A DNA stretch of 64,000 nucleotides from an uncultured Acidobacteriota bacterium (GCA_963747985.1 CAVVHG010000012.1:36054-100053); one strand, 5' to 3'. Counted from the first letter of the stretch, positions 1 through 52,732 are shown. A program made the numbers and translations. Notes: generated from the letters alone by a model not told the origin.

Positions 1-2121
1 GGCCGGATCTTCCCCGCTACCCAGAACCATGCCGACGGTGGAGCCGGTCTTCTTGACGAGATCGAGGACCTCATTGTCGGGCAGGATATTGGTCTGGATC
101 ATCAGCGGCTTTTCGGAATTGGAAAGCAGCACCTTTGCCCGCGCCGAGTCCACCCCTTTGACGATCGCGAGGACATTTGCCTTCGCCAGGGCTTCCAGGA
201 TCTTCATGCCCTCTTCGCTCAGGGTCTTGCCGTTAAAGAGAAGCGCAGGCTGATCGAGTACGACGAAGGCAACCCCCAGCTTCGAGAAGACCTCCGCCCA
301 GCGGAGGTCATCGCGGATCGAGGCGATACCACGCAGTCCGACCAGCACCGTGGTTTTCGACGGCCCTGCGCCAAACATCATCCTGAATCGGTTGGATGCC
401 TGGCCCGATGCACTGTAAAGCGTGAGTCCCCTGCTTTGTGCCAGCCTCTCGGTCCCGGCCACCAGGTTCTTCATCACCTCCAACCTGAGTGCGTCGCCGG
501 TCGCCCCTTCTTTTTCGTCCACAGTCGCCAACTGGAAATCCACATCAGGGTCTTGTACGTCTTTGTGCTCCTCGATGAGCGTGTCCAGCCTCGGGGCGTG
601 ATAATTGACGATGGTCTCGTACCTCCAGTAAAAGGTTTCCTTCCTCCTGGATTGAATGGAGAGTTTCGCGTCTGAGCCCAACACTTCGGTGGCTGCGACA
701 ACGAAATCACCTGCCTTCTTCAGGATCTCAGGCTTGATGAGATCGATAACGTCGCCGACCTGGTTGGTCTTGAAATGAGGACCGTCAGTGGCCACGAAGA
801 ACGCCGGCACGCCGTTATAGAGAAAATACGTGTGATCCGATCCACCCGGTCCCCCGCGGCCGGGAAGGCTGTTCTCCACGATCTCGTTGGGGAGGCCTGC
901 TTTGAGAATCTCCCAGACTTCCGGGGCAAAGTAGGAACCACGGACATTGACTTGGCCGGTGCCGTGACCTTCCATGTCCAGGTTGATGTTGGCGACTGTC
1001 TTCTCCAGGGGATAGACTGGATTCTCCGTGTAGAACTTTGAGCCCAGGAGCCCTTCCTCTTCCGCGGCCCAGAGGGCGAAGACAATCGTGCGCCTGGGCT
1101 TAAACTTGCGGAGCTTCATCACCCGGGCTGTCTCCATGACCACGGCCGTTCCCGAGGCGTTGTCGTCGGCCCCGTTGAAGACGTCACCGGCCATATCCAC
1201 ACCCAGGTGATCCATGTGTGCGCCGACGATCACGTATTCGTTCTTGAGGTCGGTGTCGGTGCCGGGAATCCTGGCGAGGATGTTCTGCGTAGGCCGTTTC
1301 TGATCGAAGACAACCTCGAGATTGACGAGGGATTGAACTCCCAGGTCATAGGACTGAGGCTTGCGGGTCGCCTCGATCTGCTGCAGGAAATAGCGAGGGT
1401 CCGCTTTTTGCCACTTGAAAATGAACTCGACGACGTTCCTCTCGAGAGAAATGATAACGAAGTCCGGCTTGTAGTTATCCTTCTTGAGGTCCCCGCGAAA
1501 ACCGCGGAAGCCGGGGCCATCCTGCATTTCGCTGCGGAAGGTCAGGACGCCGCGCGCCCCGTGTTCCTGGGCCGCTTGGATCCGGTTCCGAAACCGGGCT
1601 TCCTCCGCGAGCTTTTCTTCGAATTGCCGTGGCGTCTCGGTGGCGAAAAGGACCAGCTTGCCTCTGACATCGACGCCCGCGTAGTCGTCATATTCCTTCG
1701 AAGCTGCGGAGATTCCGTAGCCAACGAAGACGATTCCGGCTCCGAAAGTGCCCGACCCGGAATAACGCATCTGGCGCCAGTCATCACCGCAGACGAATTC
1801 GCGTTTCGCGTTGTGCGCGATGACGTTGAGCGTGGCGCCGCGCTGGACGGCGTAGTACTCGTAGGTCATGTCCTGGAAGTAACTGCCCTTTGGACCCGCC
1901 GGCTCGAGCCCCCAGCTTCCGAGTTTTGATGCGATGTATTCGGCTGCCATCCGCCCTCCGGGCTCACCGCTCATCCGTCCCTGCATCGCATCCGACGCGA
2001 GGACCTTGATGTATTCATAGGCCGCCTGTCCGTCGAAGACCGCATTATGGTCTTGCGACGGCGCAAGAGGAGCACAGAGTGACAGGCACAGGGCGAAGAC
2101 GGCAAGTAACCGCAAAATCAT
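1..2121 (-). CDS. M28 family metallopeptidase (aminopeptidase) with a C-terminal extension. The 5' end is complete; the 3' end runs off the window start.
   Basis: The minus-strand frame starts at ATG 2121..2119, 6 nt downstream of a GGAG. The N-terminus MILRLLAVFALCLSLCAPLA is signal-peptide-like. Hand translation of 1141-1260 (reverse complement) gives TDTDLKNEYVIVGAHMDHLGVDMAGDVFNGADDNASGTAV, the M28 zinc-site signature. The frame stays open to position 1 (...KPLMIQTNILPDNEVLDLVKKTGSTVGMVLGSGEDPA). Confidence 0.8.
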   Translation of the reverse strand, partial: MILRLLAVFALCLSLCAPLAPSQDHNAVFDGQAAYEYIKVLASDAMQGRMSGEPGGRMAAEYIASKLGSWGLEPAGPKGSYFQDMTYEYYAVQRGATLNVIAHNAKREFVCGDDWRQMRYSGSGTFGAGIVFVGYGISAASKEYDDYAGVDVRGKLVLFATETPRQFEEKLAEEARFRNRIQAAQEHGARGVLTFRSEMQDGPGFRGFRGDLKKDNYKPDFVIISLERNVVEFIFKWQKADPRYFLQQIEATRKPQSYDLGVQSLVNLEVVFDQKRPTQNILARIPGTDTDLKNEYVIVGAHMDHLGVDMAGDVFNGADDNASGTAVVMETARVMKLRKFKPRRTIVFALWAAEEEGLLGSKFYTENPVYPLEKTVANINLDMEGHGTGQVNVRGSYFAPEVWEILKAGLPNEIVENSLPGRGGPGGSDHTYFLYNGVPAFFVATDGPHFKTNQVGDVIDLIKPEILKKAGDFVVAATEVLGSDAKLSIQSRRKETFYWRYETIVNYHAPRLDTLIEEHKDVQDPDVDFQLATVDEKEGATGDALRLEVMKNLVAGTERLAQSRGLTLYSASGQASNRFRMMFGAGPSKTTVLVGLRGIASIRDDLRWAEVFSKLGVAFVVLDQPALLFNGKTLSEEGMKILEALAKANVLAIVKGVDSARAKVLLSNSEKPLMIQTNILPDNEVLDLVKKTGSTVGMVLGSGEDPA

Positions 2122-4208: not shown

Positions 4209-4528
4209 TGCTCGCGGTTCGCATGGAACCTTGCACCCGATCGGGATCGGAATCGGGATCGCAACCGGTTTCGTCATTCGAAATCATCAGACCACGCTCC
4301 GTGGTGCAGACATGGCCGTCATTCACGGGCACGTGTCGGTAGAAGAGCGGTACATTTCAATATCAATGGATGCTCATCCAGCTTACTATGGCCCCTGTTG
4401 AGCTTGTCCGAGTTTCCGCATCTGCCGGAGCAAAGCATAGTTGACGCTGTCAAACCGGTGCGTCCGCCGTTTCGAAGGGCTCGGGAGGTACGGAGGGATC
4501 CAGCACCTGTCACCTGAACGGAGCGATT

Positions 4529-5077: not shown

Positions 5078-6451
5078 TTACAGACTCCAGCCGTCGCGGT
5101 ACTGGTAATGGAGCAGCCGGGTGGCTTCGTCTGAGTTGGTCACCTTGAAGTTTACAGGATCCCAAAGAAGCTTTTTGCCTTCCAGCCGGACGGAAATCGT
5201 CCCCAGCAGCACAGCCTCGGTCAATGGGCCGGCAAAGTCAGGGAAATTGGACCTTGGTGTCCCATTGCCCTTGCAGGCCTCCAGCCACTCCTTGTGATGG
5301 CCGATCGAGCGGGGAAGAGTCTTTCGCGGTTGCTTGAACGATTTCATTCTCGACTCGGGGATCAGCATCGGCTTCTCTCCGCCCCAGCCCTCCACGAGGA
5401 TGGTTCCCCGGTCGCCGACAAAGATGAGGCCGTCCTCCCGGTCCAATTCCCTGTTGTCTTCCAGTCTGCTGGGCCGCGCGGGGACCAGTCCGCCGTCATA
5501 CCAGTGAAGAGTCACCGGCGGCATGTTCCCGCGTGCCGGGAACTCATAGTGAACGACGGAGGCGACAGGCAAGGTTTCCGGAAAGACGGGAGTCGAGCAT
5601 GCGTAGACACTGGTCGGGGCTGTCAGCTTCAGGGCTGAGAAGGCCGGGGCAATGTTGTGGATCCCCATGTCACCCAATCCTCCGGACCCGAAATCCCACC
5701 AGCCGCGCCAGGCAAAGGGAACATAGGCCGTGTTGAAGGGGCGATCGGGAGCGCTTCCCAGCCAGAGGTTCCAATCCAGTGTTTCCGGCACTTCCGGAGT
5801 GTCGGCAGGGCGCTCGATTCCCTGGGGCCACCACAACGGGTTCTTCCCCTTGTGCGTGGGGCGGTCGGACCAGACATGTACTTCCCGCACTTTCCCGATG
5901 GCACCCGCCCAGATCCATTCGTTGATCAGGCGGTTGCCTTCGAAGGCCATCCCCTGGTTGCCCATCTGGGTGGCGACTTTGGCCTCGCGCGCGGCCCGGC
6001 CGATGGCCCGGGCCTCGTAGACGGTGCGGGTCAGCGGCTTCTCGCAATAAACATGCTTGCCCCGTTTGATGGCATACATCGAGGCCGGAGCGTGAGTATG
6101 GTCGGGCGTGGCTACAAGCACCGCATCGATCTTGTCCTTTTCCTTATCGATCATTTCGCGGTAGTCCCGGTACTTGGGGGCATCCGGGTGCCTATTGAAA
6201 GTCCCTGCGGCATTCTTCAGGTCAACATCACACAAAAAGGCGATGCGAGCGCCGGCCTTCTGCAGTTGATCTATGTCCCAAGCTGCCTGACCGCCCGCCC
6301 CGATACAGGCGACGTTGATTTTGTCGCTCGGTGCAGCCTGACCTCTCCCTCCGAGCACGTGGCGCGGAACTATCATGAAGGCGCCGGCCGTTGCCACACC
6401 GGCCAGAATGTCCCGCCTCGAAATCCTGGTTTCTTCAGACTGACCGTTCAT
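5078..6451 (-). CDS. Gfo/Idh/MocA family oxidoreductase, TAT-exported.
   Basis: RBS GGAGGAG precedes ATG 6451. The TAT motif is SRRDILAGVATAGAFM. The Rossmann motif is VACIGAGGQAAWDI, and ...GKHVYCEKPLT is typical of Gfo/Idh/MocA enzymes. Confidence 0.8.
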   Translation of the reverse strand: MNGQSEETRISRRDILAGVATAGAFMIVPRHVLGGRGQAAPSDKINVACIGAGGQAAWDIDQLQKAGARIAFLCDVDLKNAAGTFNRHPDAPKYRDYREMIDKEKDKIDAVLVATPDHTHAPASMYAIKRGKHVYCEKPLTRTVYEARAIGRAAREAKVATQMGNQGMAFEGNRLINEWIWAGAIGKVREVHVWSDRPTHKGKNPLWWPQGIERPADTPEVPETLDWNLWLGSAPDRPFNTAYVPFAWRGWWDFGSGGLGDMGIHNIAPAFSALKLTAPTSVYACSTPVFPETLPVASVVHYEFPARGNMPPVTLHWYDGGLVPARPSRLEDNRELDREDGLIFVGDRGTILVEGWGGEKPMLIPESRMKSFKQPRKTLPRSIGHHKEWLEACKGNGTPRSNFPDFAGPLTEAVLLGTISVRLEGKKLLWDPVNFKVTNSDEATRLLHYQYRDGWSL

Positions 6452-6727
6452 GTCTCCTCCCGAATTTACCGGACCCGATATGCCTGTCACCGTGTCCTTA
6501 CCGTGACCTCCCCGATAATACAGGCTATTCGCTCCTTCCCGAAAGAGTCAGATGGAATTACGAATCGTTTTACCGCAGAGGCGCCGGGCACGCAGAGGCA
6601 AATGTTCAAGGTGCAGTTCGTTGACATCTGTTCCTCGGGCTCTCCTCGCCTTTGCGGTGGTTACTGAGTGTAGTCCCGGTGTCCCGCAATCCTGGACAGA
6701 GGTCGCGCGGTCGTCTATAACCACTGC

Positions 6728-8218
6728 ATGTCATTCTTGATCCTCTCGTTCGTCGCCCTTTCGCTACAGCTGGTGCCGACCGATCCCGCGCAGGCTGACC
6801 GCCCTGCGGCAGCCCGCTTCGAAAGAGCCGCGTGTCCTGTCGAGGTCGCTGCGGGTGAGCGGATCGACTGTGGCGTGCTGATCGTGCCCGAAAACCGGGC
6901 GAGGACGGGGAGCCGGACAATCCGACTGCCGGTGATGATTTTCCGGAGCCGATCCTCCTCTCCGGCCATGGACCCCGTTATCTTTCTGACTGGAGGGCCC
7001 GGTAACAGCGGCGTAGCCGGGCGGCGCTCGGGCCTTGGGATCCCGTTCCTCGATGAACGCGACTACATCGTGATGGAACAGCGCGGCACACGCTACGCCA
7101 GTCCGGCGCTCGAGTGCCCTGCCATCAACGCGATCAAGGCGGAGATCGCCGCAGGTCGCCTGCGGGGGGGCGCTGCGAATGCCGAATTGGTAAAGGCGGC
7201 GACGGCTTGCCGCGAGAAGCTGACCGCGTCGGGAGCGGACCTGGACGGTTACACCAGCGAGGCCAGCGCCGACGACATCGAAGACCTGCGTAAGGCTCTG
7301 GGCTGCGCAAAGTGGAACCTCTACGGCCTTTCCTATGGAACGCGTCTCGCCCTGACAGTGCTCCGCAGGCATCCGGCCGGCATCCGCAGCGTGGTGCTCG
7401 ATTCGGTTCTGCCGCCCGAAGTGAACTTCGACGAGGTGGCGGCCGGCAACCTGCTGCGTGCCCTGAATTCGGTGTTCGACGGGTGCGCGAGCGATCGCGA
7501 GTGCGGCACTGCCTATCCTGACCTCCGACTGCGCTTTGGGAACCTCGTGGCCGCCGCCGACCGGCAGCCGCTCAAGCTGCCGATCGACCCGGCAGATGCC
7601 GGGGGACGCCCTGCCGGGATACGCGGCGCGCAGGTGGTCGATGCAATCTACAACGCGCTGCACAAACCGCAGATGATCCCGCAGATTCCGAGGATGATAA
7701 GCGCGGCTGCGGCGGGTGACTACGCCGAGTTGCTGCCGTTGGTGAAGGAGAATCTGGGCCCATCGTCTGTGAGCTGGGGAATGCGGTACTCGGTCTGGTG
7801 CTCTGAGGAAATGCCGTTCGAGAGCGCCGACAGGATCGCCGCGCAGCTCTCACCCGGGTTGGGGATCGGCGGCATCGACGAAACAACGGCATCGCCCGAA
7901 GTGTGTCGTGCATGGAAAGTCTCTCCGGCCCCGGCAGTCGAGAACGAGCCGGTGAAGAGCGATATCCCAACCTTGATTCTCGCCGGCGAGTTTGATCCCG
8001 ACACGCCTCCCGGCTGGGGGCGCCAACTCCTGGAGTCGATGCCCAACGCGCGCTACGTGGAGTTCCGGGGGCGAAGCCACGGGGCTGGATTCAGCGCGTG
8101 CGGTGTCGAAGTCGTGTCAGCGTTCCTGCGTCATCCGGGTTCTCCGCTTGCTGCGGAGTGCACGCTCAGAATTCGCGGTGCTGACTTCGGCTCGAGCCCG
8201 CGGGGAGTCAAGCACTAG
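6728..8218 (+). CDS. Secreted alpha/beta hydrolase, S33-family peptidase-like (prolyl/tripeptidyl aminopeptidase-like).
   Basis: Signal peptide MSFLILSFVALSLQLVPTDPAQA. Motifs VIFLTGGPGNSG and GLSYGTRLAL (a GxSxG nucleophile) in an alpha/beta-hydrolase arrangement. Confidence 0.7.
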   Translation: MSFLILSFVALSLQLVPTDPAQADRPAAARFERAACPVEVAAGERIDCGVLIVPENRARTGSRTIRLPVMIFRSRSSSPAMDPVIFLTGGPGNSGVAGRRSGLGIPFLDERDYIVMEQRGTRYASPALECPAINAIKAEIAAGRLRGGAANAELVKAATACREKLTASGADLDGYTSEASADDIEDLRKALGCAKWNLYGLSYGTRLALTVLRRHPAGIRSVVLDSVLPPEVNFDEVAAGNLLRALNSVFDGCASDRECGTAYPDLRLRFGNLVAAADRQPLKLPIDPADAGGRPAGIRGAQVVDAIYNALHKPQMIPQIPRMISAAAAGDYAELLPLVKENLGPSSVSWGMRYSVWCSEEMPFESADRIAAQLSPGLGIGGIDETTASPEVCRAWKVSPAPAVENEPVKSDIPTLILAGEFDPDTPPGWGRQLLESMPNARYVEFRGRSHGAGFSACGVEVVSAFLRHPGSPLAAECTLRIRGADFGSSPRGVKH

Positions 8219-8238
8219 CGTAACCGTGGCCGAATAGA

Positions 8239-8901
8239 ATGGAGGAAGCCGTCGTGAGGTTGATTTCCGTCAATGCGGGACTTCCGCGCAGCGTAAATTG
8301 GCGCGGTAAGACAGTGAAAACGTCTATATGGAAGTACCCAGTCGAGGGACGGGTCCTTGTTTCAAAACTCAACCTCTCCGGCGATCAACAATCCGACCTC
8401 TCGGTGCACGGCGGGATCGACAAGGCAGTCTATGTTTACCCGAGCGAACACTACCCATATTGGCACAGCCAGCTGGGCGGTGCAGAGTTCTCCTGGGGAG
8501 CTTTCGGCGAGAATTTCACGGTCGACGGGCTCCTTGAAGACCAGGTGCAGGTCGGAGACGTTATTCGCGCGGGTTCGGCCGAGTTCGTCGTAACACAGCC
8601 GCGAATGCCGTGCTTCAAACTGGGGATTCGATTTGATCGTCCCGACATGGTGAAGTGGTTTCTTCAGAGCAAGCGAACCGGCTTTTACCTGGCAGTGCGT
8701 CGGGAGGGAGAAGTCGCAGCCGGTGACGCCATCGAATACGTGCACCAGGAAGACGGCGGGGTGACGATCAGCGACATCGTCGATCTTTACGTGTCGGATT
8801 TTGCGAACCAGGAACTGCTCCGCCGTGCCAGCGAGCTGGCAGCACTTCCGGATAGCTGGAAAGAGTACTTCCGCACGCGCCTATGGGATGCCGACGCCTG
8901 A
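8239..8901 (+). CDS. MOSC domain protein (YiiM-like).
   Basis: 220 aa, ...LSGDQQSDLSVHGGIDKAVYVYPSEHYPYW...QPRMPCFKLGIRF..., a typical MOSC/YiiM architecture. The start could instead be the GTG at 8254, which follows GGAGGAAG by 6 nt. Confidence 0.8.
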   Translation: MEEAVVRLISVNAGLPRSVNWRGKTVKTSIWKYPVEGRVLVSKLNLSGDQQSDLSVHGGIDKAVYVYPSEHYPYWHSQLGGAEFSWGAFGENFTVDGLLEDQVQVGDVIRAGSAEFVVTQPRMPCFKLGIRFDRPDMVKWFLQSKRTGFYLAVRREGEVAAGDAIEYVHQEDGGVTISDIVDLYVSDFANQELLRRASELAALPDSWKEYFRTRLWDADA

Positions 8902-9398
8902 TTACTCACCAGGCCGGAACGAGCGCGACAATGAATGCCACGCCAAGGCTTCGCGCGGATTGAAAACTGCAGCCGTGAGTGTCCGCACACCGGGGCGGGA
9001 ATTCAATTGTAGGCCGACGGCGAAGAGCGCCGGGTTGAGCCGCTCAGAAGCGGCCAGGACTTTATCTGCCTCTTACCTTTGGTGCTGTCTTTTTCCAGTT
9101 GAACCAGAACCGGAATCAGGTGAGGTGAGCGCGAGCGGATGGGCTGCGGGCCAGGCGCACCGTCTGGATCTCAGGAAGTTCGGGCAAATTCCAGGCCAGG
9201 GAAATCATTCCGATGTAGAATCCTGGTTGTCGCCCTTGCGGCAGCCGCAGCGCGGAAGGGCACAGCCGGCATGATGCGCACAACCTGAAAACCGGTTTGC
9301 AGCGTGAGCGGGCTGCGATGAAGTTGCGGCCTATTCCGACGGTGTCCCAGCGCTATGGCGCCGATCGGCGCCTCAGATACCAATCAGGAGTCGACATG

Positions 9399-9938
9399 CG
9401 TAGAAGAGAATTTCTCAGTGGTTCGTCATTGCTCCTTCCCGGAACTTGCTTCGCCTGTGCGCGTCCGTTGCAGTCACAAGCTGTTCCAAGGGATGCGGAT
9501 TTGAGAGAGGAGTTGTCGGCCTCCGAGCTCGAAACCGTAAACAACTCCGTCATGGCTAAGGACCTGGACAACTTCTTCGGCAAAGGCTTCAGCTGAGCGG
9601 AGTCCGGCTTGGCAGTTGCCTTGCGATACCTGAAGAAGTCGGAGGATCTGATCTGGGTGGCAGGAGCTTTTGGGGGAGGGCTTGGCAACAAGGATCTCTG
9701 CGGTTTCCTGACCGGTGGGGAGATGGCGATAGGGATTTACTCCGGCGAACTCAAGCTGGAGAGAAAGGCAGGCAAGGAGATCTGCAGCCGGAAGAGCCGG
9801 GAGTTCTGGCAGTGGTGGATTTCCCAGGCTCCGTTGCATTGCTCAGAGATCCGCGAGGGCCGGACTGATAACAAGGTGTGTCGGCGTCTCGGCAAACTCG
9901 CTGCGGTAAAGATCGAGGACCTGATCAAACCCGCCTGA
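9399..9938 (+). CDS. C_GCAxxG_C_C family putative redox protein with a TAT signal and an in-frame TGA at 9594-9596, at the first conserved Cys position. Candidate selenoprotein; otherwise a TGC-to-TGA pseudogene.
   Basis: AGGAG lies 6 nt before ATG 9399. The N-terminus is MRRREFLSGSSLLLPGTCFACA (twin-arginine). ORFs 9297..9596 and 9609..9938 share one frame, interrupted only by TGA 9594-9596. The surrounding sequence is ...DNFFGKGFS-[TGA]-AESGLAVALRYL...AGAFGGGLG...LCGFLTGGEMAIGIY...ICSRKS...HCSEIRE...VCRRLGKLAAVKIEDLI. As I recall it, this matches the family pattern (x-C-AQS..., GFGGGxG, CGAxTGA, C, C), with the TGA exactly where the first Cys is expected. A weak hairpin (GGC-AGUU-GCC with an extended interrupted stem) begins about 15 nt after the UGA. 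Confidence 0.55.
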
Positions 9939-10105: not shown

Positions 10106-10718
10106 GGTCTCCGCATCGGTCCGACAAATCAACGCCCTGCCGTATGAAGACGTTCGCTCCAGCATAAGGGACGGCGACGTTCTCATGTATCGGGGCCGCA
10201 ACCTGCCCTCGCGCCTGATCCAGTGGGCGACCGGCTCCCGCTATTCTCACGCCGGCCTGGCGGCCTGGTGGAACGGACGTCTAATGGTTTTGGAGGCAGT
10301 CGGGAAAGGGGTGGTGGTGACTCCGCTCTCCGCCAACGTGCGCCGGTATCACGGCGACGTGGAGTGGTTCACCTGCGTGGAGGACATCCCGGAACCGGAC
10401 CGGAACCGAATGATCGAATTCGCACAACAGGAGCTGGGGAAGGAATACGCGCGCTGGAAAGCCATGAAGTTCGGCCTGCGGATCCTCTTCCAGAAAGGTG
10501 AAAAGCAACGCGACGAGCTGCGGAGGGCGCGCCAGCTCTTCTGTTCTCAGTATGTCGCCGAGGTTTATAACTCTGTCGGTAAGGACCTGAAGAGGGGGGT
10601 GAGCGATCGCTTCATGTCACCGGCAGACGTTGCGAGTTCGCCGCTGTTGAAGCGGGCCGGTGCGTTGCGAAAATCGGTCGCGTGTGCGGGCGAGGCCCGG
10701 CACTCGCCCGGACGATAG
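10101..10718 (+). CDS. YiiX-type permuted papain-fold (NlpC/P60 superfamily) hydrolase.
   Basis: ...IRDGDVLMYRGRNLPSRLIQWATGSRYSHAGLAAWW...FCSQYVAEVY resembles the DUF830/YiiX permuted-papain motif set (GD..., SHxG, downstream Cys). 205 aa. Confidence 0.5.
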   Translation: MKVSASVRQINALPYEDVRSSIRDGDVLMYRGRNLPSRLIQWATGSRYSHAGLAAWWNGRLMVLEAVGKGVVVTPLSANVRRYHGDVEWFTCVEDIPEPDRNRMIEFAQQELGKEYARWKAMKFGLRILFQKGEKQRDELRRARQLFCSQYVAEVYNSVGKDLKRGVSDRFMSPADVASSPLLKRAGALRKSVACAGEARHSPGR

Positions 10719-10779
10719 CCCCGGTTGTGTCGGTACCTCGCAAGAGATCCTGGACTTGGCGTCGCGCCTGGAGCCTGTC

Positions 10780-11802
10780 ATGAGAGACCCCCTGAACACC
10801 GTACTCGTCGCATCCTGGTTGCTCCTCCTGTTGGCGACGGCGATATCTGCGCAACAACCGGGCCGGCCGCCGGCGCCCTCGCTTTCGGACGAAGAGGCGT
10901 CCGGGCTTCCCTACACATACTCGATTGCCGGCTTCGAGGATCAGGGCACCTTCACTCTCCTGATAAACGAGGAGCAGGTCGGGACCACCGAATTCGCCTG
11001 GCGGAAGGACGGTAGCTACGATAGCCATTTCCTTTTGAAACTAGGGGGGCAGTCGAACCAGGTCGATGTCGTCATCACTCCGGACGAGTCCGGAGTATGG
11101 AAGCGTGTCGAAACAAAGAGCTCCAGGGGGACCGTCCTGACGGAGCGTGAGGGCCGCCTGGTGCGGACCACGTTCCAGGAAAAGAAGGCCACCGGGCAGA
11201 TCAAAGAGCGCTCCGCGGCTTTCGACAATTACGGACCTGCACTCGGTGCTGCAATCGTCCGTGAGTACGATGCCGCGAAAGGCGGAAGACAGCCCCTGTC
11301 TGTGTGCATTCTGGGCGGCGGTGCGATCGACGGCGTACTCGAACGCCTCGCCGCCGTGGAACGACCGGTCGATGGCAGGGACCTCTCCTTTTCCCGGTAC
11401 CGCATTTCTATCCAGGCACTGGATATCGATATCTGGCTGAATCAGGATGGAAGAGTAGTCTTCGAAGAGGTTCCCGTGCAGAAGGCGGTCTTTGTGCGCA
11501 AGGGGTTTGAGGACCTCGCCACCCGGACGATCGAGGATCCGCTTTTGTCCAAGCCCTCATTTGAGGTTTCAATTCAAAAAGACGTAATGGTTCCAGCGCG
11601 GGACGGGATCAAACTGGCAGCCGACGTCTACCTCCCGAAGGTCGATGGGAAGTTCCCGTTGACCGTATACCGGACTCCGTATGGCAAGGAGTTGATGGAA
11701 CTCAAGGGTAAATACTGGGCACGGCGCGGCTACGCCTGTGCGATCCAGGACTGCCGGGGCCGTTTCAAGTCGCAGGGCACCTGGGTCCCAAACACTTTCT
11801 GA
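10780..11802 (+). CDS. Secreted hypothetical protein whose C-terminal ~70 aa match the N-terminus of a CocE/NonD (S15) hydrolase and then stop. Probable gene remnant or chimera.
   Basis: Signal peptide MRDPLNTVLVASWLLLLLATAISAQQ, then about 270 aa of unknown domain. This is followed by MVPARDGIKLAADVYLPKVDGKFPLTVYRTPYGK...RGYACAIQDCRGRFKSQGTWVPNTF-stop, which matches the start of a CocE/NonD hydrolase. The catalytic Ser region is absent. A palindromic repeat lies immediately downstream. Confidence 0.45.
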   Translation: MRDPLNTVLVASWLLLLLATAISAQQPGRPPAPSLSDEEASGLPYTYSIAGFEDQGTFTLLINEEQVGTTEFAWRKDGSYDSHFLLKLGGQSNQVDVVITPDESGVWKRVETKSSRGTVLTEREGRLVRTTFQEKKATGQIKERSAAFDNYGPALGAAIVREYDAAKGGRQPLSVCILGGGAIDGVLERLAAVERPVDGRDLSFSRYRISIQALDIDIWLNQDGRVVFEEVPVQKAVFVRKGFEDLATRTIEDPLLSKPSFEVSIQKDVMVPARDGIKLAADVYLPKVDGKFPLTVYRTPYGKELMELKGKYWARRGYACAIQDCRGRFKSQGTWVPNTF

Positions 11803-16983: not shown

Positions 16984-18066
16984 ATGTTGATTCCCGAATT
17001 TTTCCGCATAAAGAGTGCTGCGGCGATTTCCGCTATGACCTGCCTCGCTGTTTTGCTGGGCTGGCCTGCCGGCTCGGCCAGGCTTCTTGCCGGTGGCACT
17101 CCTGACCGGGCGCCGCGCAAGGTGATCCTGGGCACTGCCATGCAGGCGTTCTGGGGGGACTATCCGGGGCTGCAGAGGCGACTGGCGCAACTGGAATCGA
17201 TCCTGGACACCATGAACGAGCAGTCCAGGAAGAAGTTCGGCCGTGGTCTGGATCTTGCGGTACTGCCCGAGGTTGCCGTGACGGGCGAAATCACCGGTGA
17301 CATAGTTGCGCATTCGGTTCCCTATGATGGCCCGGTGAGGGCGACATTCTCGCGCAAGGCGCGCGAACTGGGCTGCTACCTTGTCGTGCCGCTTTACCTC
17401 CTGGAGGATAAGGAGCGGAGGATTTGCACCAACTCGGCCGTCCTGGTGGATCGCAAGGGTGACGTAGTGGGGATCTACCGCAAGCTGCAGTTGGCGGTCC
17501 AGAACGGCAGCGACTCGATGGAAGGCGGAATGACGCCGGGCAAGCAGGCTCCGGTCTTTGACTGCGATTTCGGCAGGCTGGGAATACAGATCTGTTTTGA
17601 TATCGAGTTTGACTATGGTTGGGAGCAACTCGCAAAGCAGGGAGCAGAGCTGGTGGCCTGGCCGACGCAGTCACCGCAGACCGCGCACCCGGCTTCGCGC
17701 GCGATGCGGCACGGCTTCTACATCGTGTCCAGCACCTGGCGGGACAATGCCTCCATCTTCGAACCCACCGGCAAGATCGTTTCGCAGATCAGAGCTCCCG
17801 CGCAGGTTCTCGTCGATCAGATCGACCTCAGCTATGCCATCCTGCCCTGGAGTCCGCAGCTGCAGCAGGGTGAATCGCTCAAGAAGAAGTACGGTGACCG
17901 TGTCGACTTCCACTACTACGTGGACGAGGACTGTGGCCTGTTCTGGTCCAACGATCCCGGCCTCACTATCGGGCAGATGATGCGATCCATCGGTGTTGCC
18001 GGTGCTGAAGATGAACTCAAACGCGTCCGGCAGCTTTACCGCAAGGCAGGTGTCCCTGGGTACTGA
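16984..18066 (+). CDS. Carbon-nitrogen hydrolase (nitrilase superfamily) protein.
   Basis: ...LDLAVLPEVAVTG...RKGDVVGIYRKLQL...GIQICFDIEFDYGWEQLAKQGAELVAWPTQSP... with a conserved catalytic-Cys context. The start may be the downstream Met at 17035. Confidence 0.75.
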   Translation: MLIPEFFRIKSAAAISAMTCLAVLLGWPAGSARLLAGGTPDRAPRKVILGTAMQAFWGDYPGLQRRLAQLESILDTMNEQSRKKFGRGLDLAVLPEVAVTGEITGDIVAHSVPYDGPVRATFSRKARELGCYLVVPLYLLEDKERRICTNSAVLVDRKGDVVGIYRKLQLAVQNGSDSMEGGMTPGKQAPVFDCDFGRLGIQICFDIEFDYGWEQLAKQGAELVAWPTQSPQTAHPASRAMRHGFYIVSSTWRDNASIFEPTGKIVSQIRAPAQVLVDQIDLSYAILPWSPQLQQGESLKKKYGDRVDFHYYVDEDCGLFWSNDPGLTIGQMMRSIGVAGAEDELKRVRQLYRKAGVPGY

Positions 18067-18102
18067 GGAGGTGTCCTCTTCTGATGAAAGGATGATGGAT
18101 CG

Positions 18103-18675
18103 GTGAAGATCGTTACTGTGCTCGGAAGTCCGCGAAAACGCGGCAATACCGCAGCAGTCCTGGAGGCTTTTGAGCGCTTGGCTTCTGAGAATCAGCACAC
18201 AGTTGAGCGCATCAATGCCGTGGATTTTACTGTCCGGGGTTGCCTGGGTTGTGATGCATGCTTTGAGGTTCCCGATGAGCCAGGATGTGCCCAGGACGAT
18301 GATGATGCCGTCTGGATACTCAAACGCATTCTGGAAGCTGACCTCGTCGTATACGCGACGCCCGTATATGCCTGGGGATTCACGGCTCAGGTGAAGCCTT
18401 TGATCGACCGGCACTACTGTCTGGTCAAATGGCAGGGGGACGAAGTTGCCTCTGCGCTGATGGCCGGTAAGCGCGCCGCCCTGCTGGCGACCTGTGGCGG
18501 CGATGCGGCAGGCAACGCTGACTTGCTGGAGGAGGCGTTCAAACGCCTGTTGGATTACGCGCAGTGTCAGCCGGCAGGCGTCTACGTGCTGGACAATTGT
18601 GGCAGCAGACCGGTTGGGCCCTGCGCAGATGGTGAAGCGCTGGCCCGGCGCATGGCACGCGAATTGCTCCCCTGA
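18103..18675 (+). CDS. NADPH-dependent FMN reductase / flavodoxin-like fold protein.
   Basis: KIVTVLGSPRKRGNTAAVLEAF...DLVVYATPVYAWGFTAQVKPLIDR. Likely a GTG start. Confidence 0.7.
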   Translation: MKIVTVLGSPRKRGNTAAVLEAFERLASENQHTVERINAVDFTVRGCLGCDACFEVPDEPGCAQDDDDAVWILKRILEADLVVYATPVYAWGFTAQVKPLIDRHYCLVKWQGDEVASALMAGKRAALLATCGGDAAGNADLLEEAFKRLLDYAQCQPAGVYVLDNCGSRPVGPCADGEALARRMARELLP

Positions 18676-18791
18676 GTTATCAGCCGGGCTCGAGTCGCAC
18701 AGGACAGCTTCGCATCTGTCTGTTTCAGGAGTTCCAGCCGGGGCCGCGCCCGCAACCAACAAACGCCATCGTACCGGATCGGATCCAATAG

Positions 18792-20537
18792 TCATCTGCG
18801 TGAATCCAGCGGTTCCACGATCCAGTTGCCCGGGCTGAGTGTGACTCCGGCGATCAGTTCCGATCCGAGAAGAATGCGCTCTGAGCCGGTTCCGTCTTCG
18901 TGAAGCCGGTAGAGGGTGTTTTCGTCCACAACGAACCACTCGGGGAATTCGTTCAGCCGCACATAATTCTTGTCAAGATTGATAACGCGGCGATGGCGGG
19001 CATGATCCCACAGGACGACGTTTGATTCAGGCCCGGCGAAATTCAGGAAGAGCTTTGTGCCCTCGCGCACCGCTCCAAGACGCATTCCCGGTTTCCAATG
19101 GGCGGGGCGAACGCCCTGGCTCTTCATCAGGGCATAGAGAAGCGCCGTGCGATTGAAGTTACCTTCGCCATACCAGTTTTCGATGTGGCCGTCGGGCCGC
19201 TGCATTCCGAGCATGACCTTCATCTCGGAGTCGATCCAGTCGAATGCTTCGGGCAGAGGCTCGCGATTTGCCAGGTAGATCGCGCCTTCAATTGAATCAG
19301 CGTAGCCGTCGAAGGATCCCAGGGGCAGTTTTGGATTCGGCTCCCAGACATGGTTCCTGTATTTGGGGAGGTTCCTCAGAACCTTGCGCACTGCTTCGCG
19401 GTACTTCTCCCCTCCGCCACACTGGTAATAGGTATATACAGCACCATAAACGTAGCCCCAGTTGTCGGAGAGTCCGGCATCGACGGGCCTCAGCGTAGCA
19501 GCCCCAACCTCGTTGTACAGCATGCCGTCGGGATTGGCGGAGGCGAGAATGCGGTCCAGCATACTGGCGATCGCCGGGCGGTACTCTTCGGCACGCGGAG
19601 TCTGCCAATAGTTCTCGAGGGTATACAGAAGCGCGAGGCCGACCACCATCTCGTTGCCGTGGTCCCTCAGCCGCAGGCGGCCGTCCCCGCTGTGGCGGCA
19701 GAAATCCCAATTGCTGCTTGGCACCCCATGGTTTCCGGGCAGGACTTCTTCCACGTAGGCGTCGCCGATGCGCCGTGCCCATTCGATGAAGCGCCTGTCG
19801 TTGGACATGGCGGCCAGGCGTACCAGCGTCTGAAGGTAATCCCCGTTGAGTTCGGCGTCGGATGCGGGCAGCTTGCCAAAGCGCGAATCGACCGGGGCGC
19901 GATTCATTGCGTCAGCGGTCATATCGAGCATCCGGTAGTACCAGGGAGTGCGCCCCAGGTACTCCGTGACAGCCAGCAGCCCGTCCTTGGCGTACTCCCC
20001 GGCACCGAACAGGCTCGGCGGGCCTAACTCGCCGGTGCTCATCTCCAGGTTGGCAGGTATTGAATCCTGCACCGTTGTGAACCGGACCTCGTTGCGCAGC
20101 ATTTCCAGAAGTCTGCCGTTGTACAGATCAGGGTCCGTGATGTGCGCGGTCAGGATCAGGTAGGGATACAGATCCGCTCCCGAGTTATGGGGTGTGTAAA
20201 GCCGGCTGGTGTCGCCTTCCTTCAAACCCAGTGCACCTCCGGGGACACGGTCGGGCAGGAGCGACGTCCTGGGATCCGCGTGCGTCAGCCAGACCTTCAA
20301 AACGCGTTGCGAGGCCGTCAGACGCCTGTTCGAACTGCCTGCCGTTCTCGCTTGCGGCACGGAACCGGCCATCGTCTTGAGCCATCGTGGCGCTTGGCAA
20401 GAGACAGGCAAGAACCACCAGAACCTCCGCAATCGGGGCCTGACGACGATAGTTGTTGCGAGTGCGCGGGAAACGTTCATTCGAGCGCCTGGTTTCTGGG
20501 CCTGGAATGGATTCTTGCGGCCCCTTGTCTGTTGTAA
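18792..20537 (-). CDS. Secreted (alpha/alpha)6-barrel glycosidase-like protein. The signal peptide and the mature part are in different frames, so an apparent frameshift lies near 20250-20300.
   Basis: AGGAG lies 6 nt upstream of ATG 20537. That frame gives MLTTDKGPQESIPGPETRRSNERFPRTRNNYRRQAPIAEVLVVLACLLPSATMAQDDG... and stops at 20185. The long 620-aa frame (18792..20654) has no signal peptide and no RBS at its start. It carries the body of the protein (...DGHIENWYGEGNFNRTALLYALMKSQG...). Confidence 0.5.
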   Translation of the reverse strand, partial: LQQTRGRKNPFQAQKPGARMNVSRALATTIVVRPRLRRFWWFLPVSCQAPRWLKTMAGSVPQARTAGSSNRRLTASQRVLKVWLTHADPRTSLLPDRVPGGALGLKEGDTSRLYTPHNSGADLYPYLILTAHITDPDLYNGRLLEMLRNEVRFTTVQDSIPANLEMSTGELGPPSLFGAGEYAKDGLLAVTEYLGRTPWYYRMLDMTADAMNRAPVDSRFGKLPASDAELNGDYLQTLVRLAAMSNDRRFIEWARRIGDAYVEEVLPGNHGVPSSNWDFCRHSGDGRLRLRDHGNEMVVGLALLYTLENYWQTPRAEEYRPAIASMLDRILASANPDGMLYNEVGAATLRPVDAGLSDNWGYVYGAVYTYYQCGGGEKYREAVRKVLRNLPKYRNHVWEPNPKLPLGSFDGYADSIEGAIYLANREPLPEAFDWIDSEMKVMLGMQRPDGHIENWYGEGNFNRTALLYALMKSQGVRPAHWKPGMRLGAVREGTKLFLNFAGPESNVVLWDHARHRRVINLDKNYVRLNEFPEWFVVDENTLYRLHEDGTGSERILLGSELIAGVTLSPGNWIVEPLDSRR

Positions 20538-20703
20538 GCATCTTTTGCTCCTGCCGGAAAGCCGCTGCCGGCTCTCCCTCCTTTCTATCCAATCTGCCAA
20601 GGAAGCATCCGATGCTTTGTACAAAGCGCGCTGCAACACCTTGCCTGCTCCCACTGGAACATCCTACACTGGGACGGCACAAGAGAGCTAACCGCATGCT
20701 CAG

Positions 20704-42271: not shown

Positions 42272-42499
42272 GTGCTTATTTACCCGCACGATCCGCTTCC
42301 GGCCGTTTCGTTCCTGCCCGGAAGCCTCGACCCGCACAAACTCGGTGAAGCACTCTACAAGAGGGACAGGATTGGATCTATGATACGCGGTGGACCGGAT
42401 CGCGGCGGCCTCCGCTTTTCGCCTCACATCTACAACTCGATGGCGGAGGCGGAGCCGGCAGTGAATGCGCTCAAGCGTTACTTGAGGACCGGAGTCTGA
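42272..42499 (+). pseudogene. C-terminal remnant of a class-V aminotransferase / cysteine desulfurase-like gene.
   Basis: ...IRGGPDRGGLRFSPHIYNSMAEAEPAVNALKRYL is the characteristic fold-type-I class-V C-terminus. No N-terminal PLP-binding region is present. An adjacent piece lies in another frame (42150-42270). Confidence 0.45.
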
Positions 42500-42579
42500 C
42501 GGGTGTCAGAACGACGGCAGGACATGCGGGCCCGGTTGCAGGCGACCCGAAACGCCTGCATGCTGTCGATACAGGATGG

Positions 42580-43909
42580 GTGGACATGACCCGAAAATTG
42601 CTTGTTCTCACGGTAGTGTCCTGCGCTTGTCTTCTCGGGCCTTTTCCCAAGACTGTGCGGGCTCAGGACACCGGCGCGACGCTTGAAGCAGCGAAATTCG
42701 ATCCAGTCGCCGCCACGGAATCGTATCTCGCCAGAATTCCTGCGGGAAAGCGGGCACAATCGGATGCATATTTTGAAGGAGGCTACTGGCTTCAGCTCTG
42801 GGACTTCGTGATCGGGGTCGGCCTCGCTTACCTGCTGCTCGCGGGGCGGTGGTCAGCCGGGATGAGAGACTCTGGCTGAACGCCTGACGCGGCGAAGGCC
42901 GCTGCAGACTCTCATCTACTGGATCCAATATCTCATCGTGACGACGCTGATCACATTCCCGATGACCGTTTACCAAGACTACTTTCGGGAGCACAAGTAC
43001 GGCCTGGCAACTCAGACTCTGGGGCCCTGGCTGGGAGATCAGCTCAAGAGCCTGATGGTAGGATCGATCCTGGGCGGAATTCTCATCATGGCGCTGTACG
43101 GCGTCGTCCGGAAGCTGCCGCGGACCTGGTGGATGTGGGGCCCGGTGGTGATGATTGTGTTGACGATCTTTGCGCTTCTCATCGGCCCCGTCTTTATTGA
43201 GCCTCTGTTCAACAAGTACACGCCCCTCACAGATCCTGCCATCCGCGAACCAATACTCAGGCTGGCGCGCGCGAACGGCATTGAAACCAACGACGTTTAC
43301 GTGTTTGACGCTTCCCGTCAAACGACCAGAGTCTCGGCGAATGTCGCCGGGTTTCTCGGCACCGAGCGCATCGCCTTGAACGACAACCTTTTGAAGCGAT
43401 GCACTCTCCCCGAGATCGAAACCGTCATGGCCCACGAAATGGGTCACTATGTCCTGAACCACATTTATAAGATGCTCAACTTTTTCCTGATCATCACGGT
43501 CGTCGGCTTTGTCTTCCTCCGATGGTCGTTCGATTTCAGCCTGAAGAAATGGGGGCGGAAATGGGGCGTGCGCGACATCGGCGATATGGCCGGGTTGCCC
43601 CTTGTCGTACTCCTCTTTTCCATTTTCTTCTTTTTTGTGACCCCCGTTACGAATACTTTCATTCGAGTCCAGGAAGCCGAGGCTGACATATACGGATTGA
43701 ACGCCGCGCGGCAACCGGATGGTGAAGCTGAGGTGGAGCTAAAGCTCGGTGAATATCGCAAGATGTCGCCGGGGTCCATCGAGGAGTTCATTTTCTACGA
43801 CCACCCGAGCGGCCGAAACCGGATCCTCATGGCAATGAGATGGAAGGCCGAGAATCTCGACCAGATGCCGGTCCGTGTGCCCGCGCAATCGACGGCGCCG
43901 GCCCCGTGA
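42580..43909 (+). CDS. M48 family metallopeptidase (Ste24 / CAAX-protease-like). The N-terminal 99 aa and the remaining 323 aa are separated by an apparent frameshift near 42865.
   Basis: ORF 42580..42879 (signal/TM region, ...GYWLQLWDFVIGVGLAYLLLAGRWSAGMRDSG-stop). The following frame reads ETLAERLTRRRPLQTLIYWIQYLIVTTLITFP...HEMGHYVLNH (HExxH)...EADIYG. A one-nucleotide shift within GGGATGAGAGACTCTGGCTGAACGC joins the two. Confidence 0.65.
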
Positions 43910-50020: not shown

Positions 50021-51848
50021 TCAGGCGGAGCGTTGCTTCGGGCGCTGGTTGTATGCGAGGACCCGCTTGCGCAGCCGGATCGACACGGGGGTGACCTCAA
50101 CGAGCTCATCGTCGTTTATGAATTCGAGCGCCTGCTCCAGCGACAGCTCGCGGAAGGGCACCAACCGGATAGCCTCGTCGGCGGTCGAGGCACGCATGTT
50201 GGTGAGCTTCTTCTCCTTCACGACGTTCACGTCGAGATCCACATTACGCGCATTCTCTCCGATAACCATTCCTTCGTACACGTCGGTCCCGGGCCGGATG
50301 AACAGCTCCCCGCGTTCCTGGAGGTTGTAGAGCGCGTAGCTGGTCGCTGATCCCGGACGGTCTGCGACGAGGGCTCCCGTGAGCCGGTTTGTGATTTCGC
50401 CCGCCCACTCTCCCCAGCGCAGGAACATGGTGTTGAGCAGGCCGGTACCCTTGGTGTCGGTCAGGAACTCGGAACGGAAGCCGATGAGTCCCCGGGAAGG
50501 GGCTTCGAACTCCAGGCGGACTCGGCCGCTGCCGTGATTGATCATGCGGGTCATGTGCCCCTTGCGCCTGCCCAGCGCTTCGGCTACGACGCCGATGAAA
50601 AGCTCGGGGCAATCGACCACGACCATTTCGATCGGCTCCATCCTTCTGCCGTCGACACTGCGGGTGATCACCTCGGGTTTGGAGACCTGCATCTCATAGC
50701 CTTCCCGTCGCATCATCTCGATGAGGATGGCCAGCTGCAATTCGCCGCGGCCGGACACCTTGAAGCTGTCCATTCCCTCGGTCTCGTTGACCCGGATGGC
50801 CACGTTCCCGAGCACCTCCTTCTCCAGCCGCGCGCGGAGCTGGCGCGAGGTCACGTACCGGCCATCCCGGCCGGAAAACGGAGATGTGTTTACCGAAAAG
50901 ATCATCGAAATGGTTGGCTCGTCGACGTGGATGGCGGGAAGCGGCAGAGGGTCTTCCTCGTCGGCCACGGTCTCCCCGATGAAGATACCTTCGATCCCCG
51001 CCAGGGCCACGATGTCCCCGGCCGATGCTTCGGTCACCGGCTTCTGCTTCAGCCCTTCGAACGAGTAGAGTTGCGTGATGCGCGTCTTCTGGATCGTGCC
51101 GTCGAGTTTGCAGACCGACACTCCATCCCCAACCGCGACCTTCCCGGAGAATACCCGGCCGATGGCGATCCGGCCGACGTAGTCGCTGTAATCAAGAGTG
51201 GTTACGAGCATCTGCAATTTTGTCTCGTGCCGTGGGCAAGGCGCGGGAATGCTTTCGACGATCTGTTCGAAAAGCGGGCGGAGGTCCTGCGAGGCGTCTT
51301 CAAGGCTCCGGCGTGCGATGCCGTCGCGGCTGATCGCATAGAGGATCGGGAAGCCGATCTGCGCCTCGGTGGCGTCGAGGTCGATGAAGAGATCGTAGAT
51401 CTCGTTCACAACCTCCTGCGGCCGGGCGTCGGCCCGGTCTATCTTGTTCACTACCACTATCGCGGGGAGTTTCTCCTCGAGGGCCTTGCGCAGCACGAAG
51501 CGCGTCTGAGGAAGCGGCCCCTCCGAAGCGTCAACCAGCAGCATGACTCCGTCGACCATCTTCAAAACGCGCTCGACCTCGCCGCCGAAATCCGAATGGC
51601 CAGGGGTGTCGACGATGTTGATCTTTATGCCCCGGAAGAAGACGGCCGTGTTCTTGGCCATGATTGTGATACCGCGCTCGCGCTCGAGATCGAGGTTGTC
51701 CATGACACGCTCGACCACGCGCTCGTTGTCGCGAAAGGTGCCGCTCTGTCTGAGCATTGCGTCGACGAGGGTAGTCTTTCCGTGGTCGACGTGAGCGATG
51801 ATGGCCACATTCCGGACGTCTGTCCGGGTGGCGCTATTAGGTGCCAAG
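50021..51848 (-). CDS. typA: Translational GTPase TypA/BipA.
   Basis: [27 protein letters not shown] (G1), DTPGH (G3), NKID (G4), and EF-G-like domains. The start is ambiguous. TTG 51848 follows GGAG and gives about 609 aa, consistent with BipA. The ATG at 51955 is an alternative. Confidence 0.85.
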
Positions 51849-51998
51849 GCTGTGTTCTCCGTGCCTGAATGGATGTGCGCGCCGGGCTCCCGACTTTCCT
51901 GTTCGTTCAGCCGGCTGCTGAGAAAACGGCCGCCCGCGGCTTCGCGGCGGACCATAATGATAGCGCGCCTGGCGCGGGCATCAAACACGCATCTGCGA

Positions 51999-52021
51999 GG
52001 GGGACAGTCACCAGTGTCCCC
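51999..52021. repeat. REP-like palindromic element, copy 7 (GGGGGACAGTCACCAGTGTCCCC), upstream of typA.
   Basis: Same family, in the typA leader / intergenic region. Confidence 0.7.
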
Positions 52022-52213
52022 GGCATGCCAGGATGTTGCAGGGCGCCGCGTGGAGCGGGTCCCCACCCACTCCGGCGGAGAGGCTCTCCTGCGGTTGCTC
52101 CGTTTTTGGCCTTCCTTTTGTTTGTTTCCTGAGGGACACTGATAACAGACCCCGTTGATTGATCGCGCAACCAGGCTCCAGGCGATCAGGCGGTTTGTGC
52201 GCGCGAAACTCAC

Positions 52214-52732
52214 ATGGCGCGAAATATCGAAATCAAAGCACGCATCGACAGTATTGCTGAACTCGCCCACAAGGTCGCAACTATTGCGTCCTCAGGCCCA
52301 ACCGAGATTGTTCAAGATGACACGTTCTTCGAATGCAATGCCGGACGTCTGAAGTTGCGAGCCTTTCCGGATGGCCGTGGCGAACTGATCTACTACCGTC
52401 GGGCGGACCACCAGGGCCCGAAAGAATCCTTCTACCTGATATCTCCCACAACGTCGCCTTCCTCACTGCGTGAAATCCTATCGCTCGCTCTGGGGGAAGC
52501 AGGCAGGGTCGAGAAACGGCGCACGCTGTTTCTCGTCGGGCGCACCCGCGTCCATCTCGATCTGGTCAAGGACTTGGGCGAATTCCTTGAGCTGGAAGTT
52601 GTGCTCAATGACGGGGAGTCATCTCAAGCTGGAATTGCCGAGGCCCAAGCGTTGATGGAACGATTAGGGATTGATCCATCACAACTGATTGAGTGTGCCT
52701 ATCTGGACCTGCTGAATCATGCAATCACCTAG
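52214..52732 (+). CDS. CYTH-domain protein (class IV adenylyl cyclase CyaB-like / triphosphatase).
   Basis: [13 protein letters not shown]... (the EIK motif typical of CYTH), about 170 aa, ...LELEVVLND... Confidence 0.65.

Follow-up and report, generated by a model that had tools for sequence, protein, structure and literature searches.

A conserved in-frame TGA in a C_GCAxxG_C_C family gene of an uncultured Acidobacteriota bacterium is very probably a selenocysteine codon

A 64,000-nucleotide stretch of DNA from an uncultured Acidobacteriota bacterium (the window) contains two open reading frames, at 9297..9596 and 9609..9938, that form one frame interrupted only by the TGA at 9594-9596. This arrangement raises the question of whether the TGA ends a gene, has damaged one, or encodes selenocysteine (Sec), as the original prediction had proposed. 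Translation of positions 9396-9938 gave a single internal stop, confirming that the TGA is the sole break in the frame. The Sec reading was supported by the retention of the TGA across a diverged clade, by purifying selection on both sides of it, by constraint on the nucleotides of a downstream hairpin and by the existence of orthologues with Cys at the same position. On this comparative sequence evidence the TGA at 9594-9596 is very probably a genuine Sec codon in a C_GCAxxG_C_C selenoprotein gene.

The gene had been taken to start at position 9399, which proved to be incorrect, the start codon being the ATG at 9396-9398. A Shine-Dalgarno-like AGGAG was read from the sequence at 9386..9390 (+ strand), 5 nt 5′ of ATG 9396, and the homologues likewise begin MRRREFL. 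Translation from this ATG reads MRRREFLSG...GKGFS*AESGLAVAL...IKPA*, giving a predicted complete selenoprotein coding sequence at 9396..9938 (+ strand) of 180 residues, with Sec at residue 67 and a terminal TGA at 9936-9938; full-length Cys-containing homologues of about 180 amino acids show 60-78% identity. The in-frame TGA (9594..9596, + strand) is codon 67, at the position of the first invariant Cys of the family, and would be read as Sec (U67). The motifs quoted earlier for this protein (GKGFS-TGA-AESGLAVAL, AGAFGGGLG and LCGFLTGGEMAIG) were all found in the translation, with further Cys at 130, 149 and 162. A search around the gene for a sigma-70 promoter or an intrinsic terminator found neither. 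Because TGA works as a normal stop elsewhere in the window, as it does at the end of this same gene, genome-wide reassignment of TGA was rejected as the explanation.

The membership of the protein in the C_GCAxxG_C_C family was examined using profile searches. With the internal stop translated as Cys, the Pfam profile PF09719 (C_GCAxxG_C_C) matched with 47 bits (cutoff 27) and an E-value of 3.3e-12 over positions 1-117 of 118, so that the proposed membership was upheld by a score above the gathering threshold across the whole domain. The domain spans residues 65-175 (9588..9920, + strand) and contains the invariant positions U/C67, C102, C149 and C162, while C130 is nearly invariant. The order C ... 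GCAxxG ... C ... C is present, the second motif being L-C-G-F-L-T-G, a variant of GCAxxG. PF09719 was also carried by all homologues listed in the protein-collection search, and the column aligned with the TGA was Cys in 108 of 108 full-length homologues, placing the TGA at the first conserved Cys as had been predicted. Among the NCBIfam models, TIGR01909, which is named 'C-GCAxxG-C-C family (seleno)protein', gave 29 bits, below its cutoff of 47.4, as was also the case for the Cys homologues P0001, P0012, P0029 and P0074. The best NCBIfam match was NF045669 (DVU_1555 family C-GCAxxG-C-C protein; 41.8 against a cutoff of 103) and the third best was NF045501 (HUGP/GUXX-star fusion selenoprotein; 15.6 against 325). 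Both match over the same domain but with scores far under their cutoffs, and the protein is a member of neither. Judging by its name alone, NF045501 may have Sec in a similar motif near the N-terminus, with HUGP corresponding to S-U-A-E. The C_GCAxxG_C_C family has known Sec members, and the TGA column coincides with its conserved Cys.

The protein-collection search revealed two kinds of relative. Full-length proteins of about 180 residues were 50-78% identical to the window protein and all had Cys at the TGA column (GKG[FY]SCAESG). Eight further clusters, standing for about 63 member sequences, contained proteins of exactly 109 residues that were 82-90% identical and each started at the same LAVAL, the pattern left by gene calls that divide one gene in two. 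The DNA of the loci of the 109-residue clusters, of metagenome relatives and of genome relatives was examined, and the Sec-form loci shared one arrangement, in which a conserved N-terminal coding stretch is followed by the TGA and then by the rest of the domain in frame. A further 20 contigs of the clade had TGA in this column; they derived from many independent metagenomes and included one Acidobacteriota metagenome-assembled genome (MAG; L024). The column was TGT or TGC in about 55 other genome loci and TGA in 2 contigs of a second clade; TAA or TAG was never found there in any of the related loci examined. The 17 distinct full Sec-form coding sequences ranged from 72 to 99.8% nucleotide identity. 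Codons 2-66 had a median dN/dS of 0.13 among 14 Sec forms and codons 68-180 one of 0.11, dS being approximately 0.8-1.1. Values near 0.1 on both sides with dS near saturation indicate that the two halves have been maintained in a single coding frame throughout a long divergence.

These data bear directly on the possibility that a normal Cys gene was truncated, either by a nonsense mutation of TGC or TGT to TGA or by a sequencing error. Gene callers split the gene everywhere, and the window does hold other disrupted genes, as had been pointed out earlier, including an M48 protease frameshifted near 42870 and an N-terminal Peptidase_S15 fragment. An error or a recent mutation cannot, however, be shared as widely as this TGA, which recurs in 20 other contigs that were assembled independently and are 72-99.8% identical in nucleotide sequence, and which is never TAA or TAG; nor would such a change be accompanied by a dN/dS of about 0.1 on either side with dS near saturation. 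Nonsense mutation and sequencing error were thus excluded, the one-off TGC-to-TGA change that had been raised as the alternative is refuted, and a pseudogene of any kind is exceedingly unlikely.

The automated annotation implies a different product, namely two small proteins, an exported peptide of 66 residues and a cytoplasmic fragment of 109 residues beginning at TTG 9609. Every automated gene call treats the locus in this way, and all 12 of the 12 loci obtained by exact-protein look-up were annotated as an orphan of 66 or 42 residues plus a 109-residue fragment. The same kind of look-up gave no exact match to the 109-residue reading frame of the window itself. The 109-residue piece would however have no signal peptide and would miss the first invariant Cys of one compact domain, and the Pfam match (65-175) spans the break, as does the predicted structure, where a helix of residues 67-78 begins at the Sec position 67. 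Codons 68-71, which follow the TGA and precede the TTG, show coding conservation, and full-length Cys orthologues exist. This reading has next to no probability, and a single protein with Sec at position 67 is favoured. The split calls have made a clade of soil and sediment Acidobacteriota selenoproteins invisible in current annotation.

A candidate SECIS element was found downstream of the TGA. The hairpin GC-UU-GGC-[AGUU]-GCC-UU-GC lies at 9607..9625 (+ strand), with its stem at 9607-9624 and its loop at 9614-9617. The AGUU loop and interrupted stem that had been described were both present, but the spacing of about 15 nt was not, the stem beginning 10 nt and the loop 17 nt after the TGA. 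The hairpin has a folding energy of -8.0 kcal/mol, and the second base of its loop is G, followed by U; the hairpins of the Sec forms of the clade range from -7.8 to -8.3 kcal/mol. Published criteria for bacterial SECIS (bSECIS) elements (2026 review) specify a loop of 3-9 nt, G in the first two loop positions, a spacing of 16-37 nt, a minimum free energy of -7.5 kcal/mol or lower and an upper stem of 4-16 bp. The window hairpin agrees with these in loop, distance and energy, while its stem of 3 bp, a tandem U-U and 2 bp is marginal in length. The geometry thus fits the published description, but the hairpin alone is no better than chance: a 67-nt fold of the hairpin region gave a z-score of 0.66, and when random positions or TGA trinucleotides of the window were judged by simplified SECIS criteria in the same register, 5-6% of them conformed. 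Its significance consequently comes only from comparative data. Rfam contained no matching SECIS model, the search of the whole window at gathering thresholds and of 9500-9720 at permissive E-values returning only noise. Like the E. coli fdhF-type SECIS and the bSECIS consensus, the element is a hairpin within the reading frame just after the UGA, with a small loop containing G and then U, but its stem is far shorter than that of the fdhF type and is interrupted by the tandem U-U.

The comparative data were obtained from the codons that encode the hairpin. The 19-mer GCTTGGCAGTTGCCTTGCG (9607-9625) was identical in every Sec form of the clade, while the flanking codons varied synonymously. Across the 17 coding sequences, 79 columns encode an unchanging amino acid that has synonymous codons; a single codon was used in only 13 of these columns, 6 of which fell in codons 70-76. 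No other stretch of the gene keeps the third position unchanged over seven consecutive codons (permutation p = 0.0007). Cys forms that encode the same LAVAL peptide choose other codons, so that the hairpin nucleotides are invariant only in the TGA forms. One such Cys form (L088) reads CTGGCGGTGGCGCTG, with LAVAL encoded as CTG GCG GTG GCG CTG, and in another (L086) the corresponding codons are TTG GCG GTA GTT TTG. The hairpin energies differ accordingly, lying mostly between -0.8 and -6.5 kcal/mol in Cys forms compared to -7.7 to -8.3 kcal/mol in Sec forms.

A second Sec clade was formed by two Acidobacteriota MAGs (L036 and L037), whose proteins are approximately 52% identical to the window protein. 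In both, the TGA is at 10193-10195, in the same column, within the motif GYS-U-AE[ST]GLMVSLRH. Their hairpin has a different sequence, GGC-UAAUG-[GUUU]-CAUUA-c-GCC, and an energy of -7.7 kcal/mol, and arises partly from an Ala-to-Ser change (GCN to UCA) and from CUA/UUA Leu codons. No comparable hairpin was found in the Cys sisters of these two loci, where energies were between -0.8 and -5.3 kcal/mol. In both Sec clades GUU occupies positions +19..+21 and the distance from UGA to loop is 17-18 nt. The best argument for the structure as a recoding signal is that two unrelated sequences, each associated with a TGA, share one geometry.

The conservation of the 19-mer might instead act at the DNA level, with the block serving as a sigma-54 (-24/-12) promoter inside the gene, of the form TGGCAG-N5-TTGC. 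The sigma-54 -24/-12 promoter consensus is TGGCA-N6-TTGC, and a match, TGGCAGTTGCCTTGC, is present at 9610-9624. The window contains 2 such matches where 0.49 would be expected by chance, the other being the near-perfect TGGCACGCGAATTGC at 18653-18667 (+ strand), close to large open reading frames (17671-18939; 18792-20654, minus strand) that gave no Pfam matches. Much of the motif at 9610-9624 is however forced by the peptide L-A-V-A-L-R, the downstream neighbours vary by locus, so that there is no conserved target gene, and the second Sec clade has the hairpin but no such motif. The Cys forms lose exactly the hairpin-forming nucleotides, and a promoter would leave the conserved TGA unexplained. 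A promoter is therefore a very unlikely explanation for the conservation of the 19-mer, and an RNA hairpin acting on the UGA is preferred.

The genes required for Sec insertion were sought in the 64-kb window and in the sequences flanking related loci, and neither held selA, selB, selD or tRNA-Sec. When about 45 open reading frames of the window were scanned against Pfam, no SelA, SelB or SelD was detected; the GTPase at 50021-52270 is TypA/BipA. ARAGORN detected no tRNA in the window and none of relevance in 56 related loci. In a Gemmatimonadota MAG (L079) it called a 95-nt 'tRNA-Gln (ctg)' at 4277-4371 (+ strand), which is probably false, the site having no Rfam match to tRNA or tRNA-Sec.

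A full-length product could also be made if the UGA were read through without selenium, by a near-cognate tRNA (Trp or Cys) or by some other hairpin-stimulated recoding. The lack of Sec machinery in the window and related flanks and the small size of the hairpin would agree with this, and a conserved UGA with a hairpin shows that recoding occurs and not which amino acid is inserted. Selenium-free read-through is nevertheless improbable. The UGA falls on an invariant Cys that is probably redox- or metal-active, and the orthologues switch between Cys and Sec, which is the standard signature of a selenoprotein. The bSECIS-like geometry is present in two independent clades, the family has Sec members, and the phylum has Sec users, the Sec trait being documented in some Acidobacteria. 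Insertion of Sec thus remains the preferred reading of the recoded UGA.

The distribution of Sec and Cys forms was examined using a rough neighbour-joining tree without bootstraps. The window sequence fell inside a coherent Sec clade within which a Cys pair (L086 and L087) was also nested, and the Sec pair L036/L037 was nested among Cys forms elsewhere in the tree. This topology suggests that Sec was gained at least twice and probably reverted to Cys once. Two Cys forms, L087 (295-360) and L019 (3199-3264), still hold most of the hairpin nucleotides (GGCAGTTGCCTTGCG), consistent with a relic SECIS after reversion from Sec to Cys, and in L086, which is sister to L087, these nucleotides are already gone. 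All relatives with organism names were Acidobacteriota or Aminicenantes.

The properties of the encoded protein suggest export from the cytoplasm. The N-terminus consists of M-R-R-R-E-F-L followed by the hydrophobic stretch SSLLLPG and then A-C-A, which together form a predicted twin-arginine (Tat) signal peptide, MRRREFLSGSSLLLPGTCFACA (9396..9464, + strand), with likely cleavage after A-C-A. Among the 108 homologues R3, R4 and F6 were each at least 90% conserved. The Tat pattern used for comparison comprises (S/T)-R-R-x-F-L-K, a hydrophobic region and an A-x-A cleavage site. The twin-arginine signal described in the original prediction agrees with the sequence in that the MRRREFL motif is present and its key residues are conserved, but a Tat-signal HMM gave no match to the N-terminal 36 residues.

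The structure was assessed using an AlphaFold model of a 78%-identical Cys orthologue, built with 108 aligned sequences. The model is all-helical, with a pLDDT of about 95 over residues 30-180, while residues 1-27, corresponding to the signal, are disordered. In this model the all-helical domain adopts the split-Soret cytochrome c fold (PDB 1H21). The sequence identity to 1H21 is only 17%, PDB sequence searches with two profiles gave no sequence-level match to it, and a Foldseek search against the PDB found nothing. The protein differs from split-Soret cytochrome c in being about half the size, in having Sec and in lacking CxxCH, of which split-Soret cytochromes have two as haem c attachment sites; since this motif is absent from the 180-residue sequence, identity as a cytochrome was rejected. 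The 1H21 entry, for the split-Soret cytochrome c of Desulfovibrio desulfuricans ATCC 27774, reports in its title 'a novel iron centre'. Split-Soret cytochromes are periplasmic, and sources ascribe predicted twin-arginine signal peptides to them or list them as putative Tat substrates. Such signals are unusual for c-type cytochromes, which suggests that the cofactor is inserted in the cytoplasm. The iron centre of 1H21 is reportedly a [2Fe-2S] cluster bound by four Cys.

The split-Soret fold, its iron centre and the Tat signals together lead to the working hypothesis that the four invariant positions of the window protein hold such a centre. In the mechanism proposed here, positions 9396-9938 would be translated into one 180-residue protein, with the UGA at 9594-9596 recoded as Sec (U67). 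Recoding would be directed by the hairpin within the coding sequence (9607-9624), with its AGUU loop 17 nt downstream, in the manner of bacterial SelB/SECIS systems. The protein would probably fold and be loaded with its cofactor in the cytoplasm and then be exported to the periplasm by the twin-arginine route. U67, C102, C149 and C162 would either bind an iron-sulfur-type centre or make up a selenol/thiol site with redox activity, in which Sec may have taken the place of Cys to tune the reactivity of the centre or site. The chance that Sec is a ligand of an iron-sulfur centre is put at slightly less than even. The fuller scenario, where U67 is a selenolate ligand of an iron-sulfur centre in a Tat-exported periplasmic protein and Sec was gained at least twice within the Acidobacteriota and lost at least once, leaving a relic SECIS, is tentative and, taken as a whole, rather doubtful.

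The locus was compared with selenoproteins described previously. C-GCAxxG-C-C selenoproteins were first reported in 2007, when form 1 was described as a 'putative redox protein' in the delta-1 symbiont of Olavius algarvensis (Zhang and Gladyshev, 2007); a form 2 came from the GOS survey, and both forms are listed in reviews. The proteins of the present clade resemble these forms in belonging to the same Pfam family, in the Sec/Cys pair at a conserved Cys and in the hairpin downstream of the UGA, but are of Acidobacteriota type and carry a predicted N-terminal Tat signal and about 40 extra residues. The clade may share the Sec site of those forms or use another. Tat-exported selenoproteins are themselves well known, in the form of the periplasmic formate dehydrogenase (FdnG/FdhA) and [NiFeSe] hydrogenase. 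In these enzymes the cofactor is assembled in the cytoplasm before Tat export and Sec is a metal ligand. They are however far larger and unrelated to the window protein in fold and cofactor, and no partner subunits are encoded beside the gene described here.

The C-GCAxxG-C-C proteins as a selenoprotein family, and the export of selenoproteins by the Tat route, are thus already known. What is new is a clade with a predicted Tat signal and Sec at the first invariant Cys, the repeated origin of this state within the Acidobacteriota and the link to the split-Soret fold; in no source were the Sec-form members of the clade named as selenoproteins. The gene reveals no new mechanism. It does provide a compact Sec/Cys pair that is well replicated and includes both gains and a probable reversion, a natural experiment useful for studying why Cys gives way to Sec, and it links a family of unknown function to a fold that bears an iron centre and to Tat export, giving a testable cofactor hypothesis.

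The genes surrounding the Sec and Cys forms were also compared. The GFO/IDH/MocA gene of the window (5078-6490) is present at 90% identity in one Sec-form locus (L021), the downstream C92 amidase at 89% identity in another (L007), and the upstream sulfatase is 78% identical to that of the nearest Cys form (L086/P0001). These matching neighbours indicate that the four loci (window, L021, L007 and L086) are orthologous. Across all loci no conserved gene neighbourhood hinting at function was found, the downstream neighbours being variable. In L021 the GFO/IDH/MocA gene directly adjoins the selenoprotein gene, while in the window the two are separated by approximately 2.9 kb (6491-9395) containing an alpha/beta hydrolase and a MOSC/YiiM gene. 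The difference corresponds to either an insertion in the window or a deletion in L021.

Several other features were observed in the window. The Ste24-type M48 protease (42400-43909, + strand) appears to be frameshifted, with its frame 0 part ending ...GRWSAGMRDSG* and the sequence continuing in frame 1 as LAERLTRRRPLQTLIY, which matches Peptidase_M48_N positions 88-179 and Peptidase_M48; the gene may be a true pseudogene, or an indel error may have produced the shift. The region 10660-11802 (+ strand) matches only profile positions 1-71 of 262 of Peptidase_S15 (X-Pro dipeptidyl-peptidase) and is a truncated remnant, after which an unrelated MR_MLE enolase-family gene starts at 11849. A search of the window for other genes with in-frame TGA was swamped by spurious open reading frames in the GC-rich sequence. 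One candidate, at 1-1929 (+ strand, frame 0), consists of open segments of 224, 121 and 295 codons separated only by TGA at 673 and 1039; the segments gave no Pfam match and are probably spurious, given the GC-rich DNA. Lastly, the terminal stop was TAG in 11 of the 14 Sec forms and TGA in the window and L014, with the L024 gene one codon longer. This preference for TAG may be the result of selection against a second UGA near the SECIS, or of chance.
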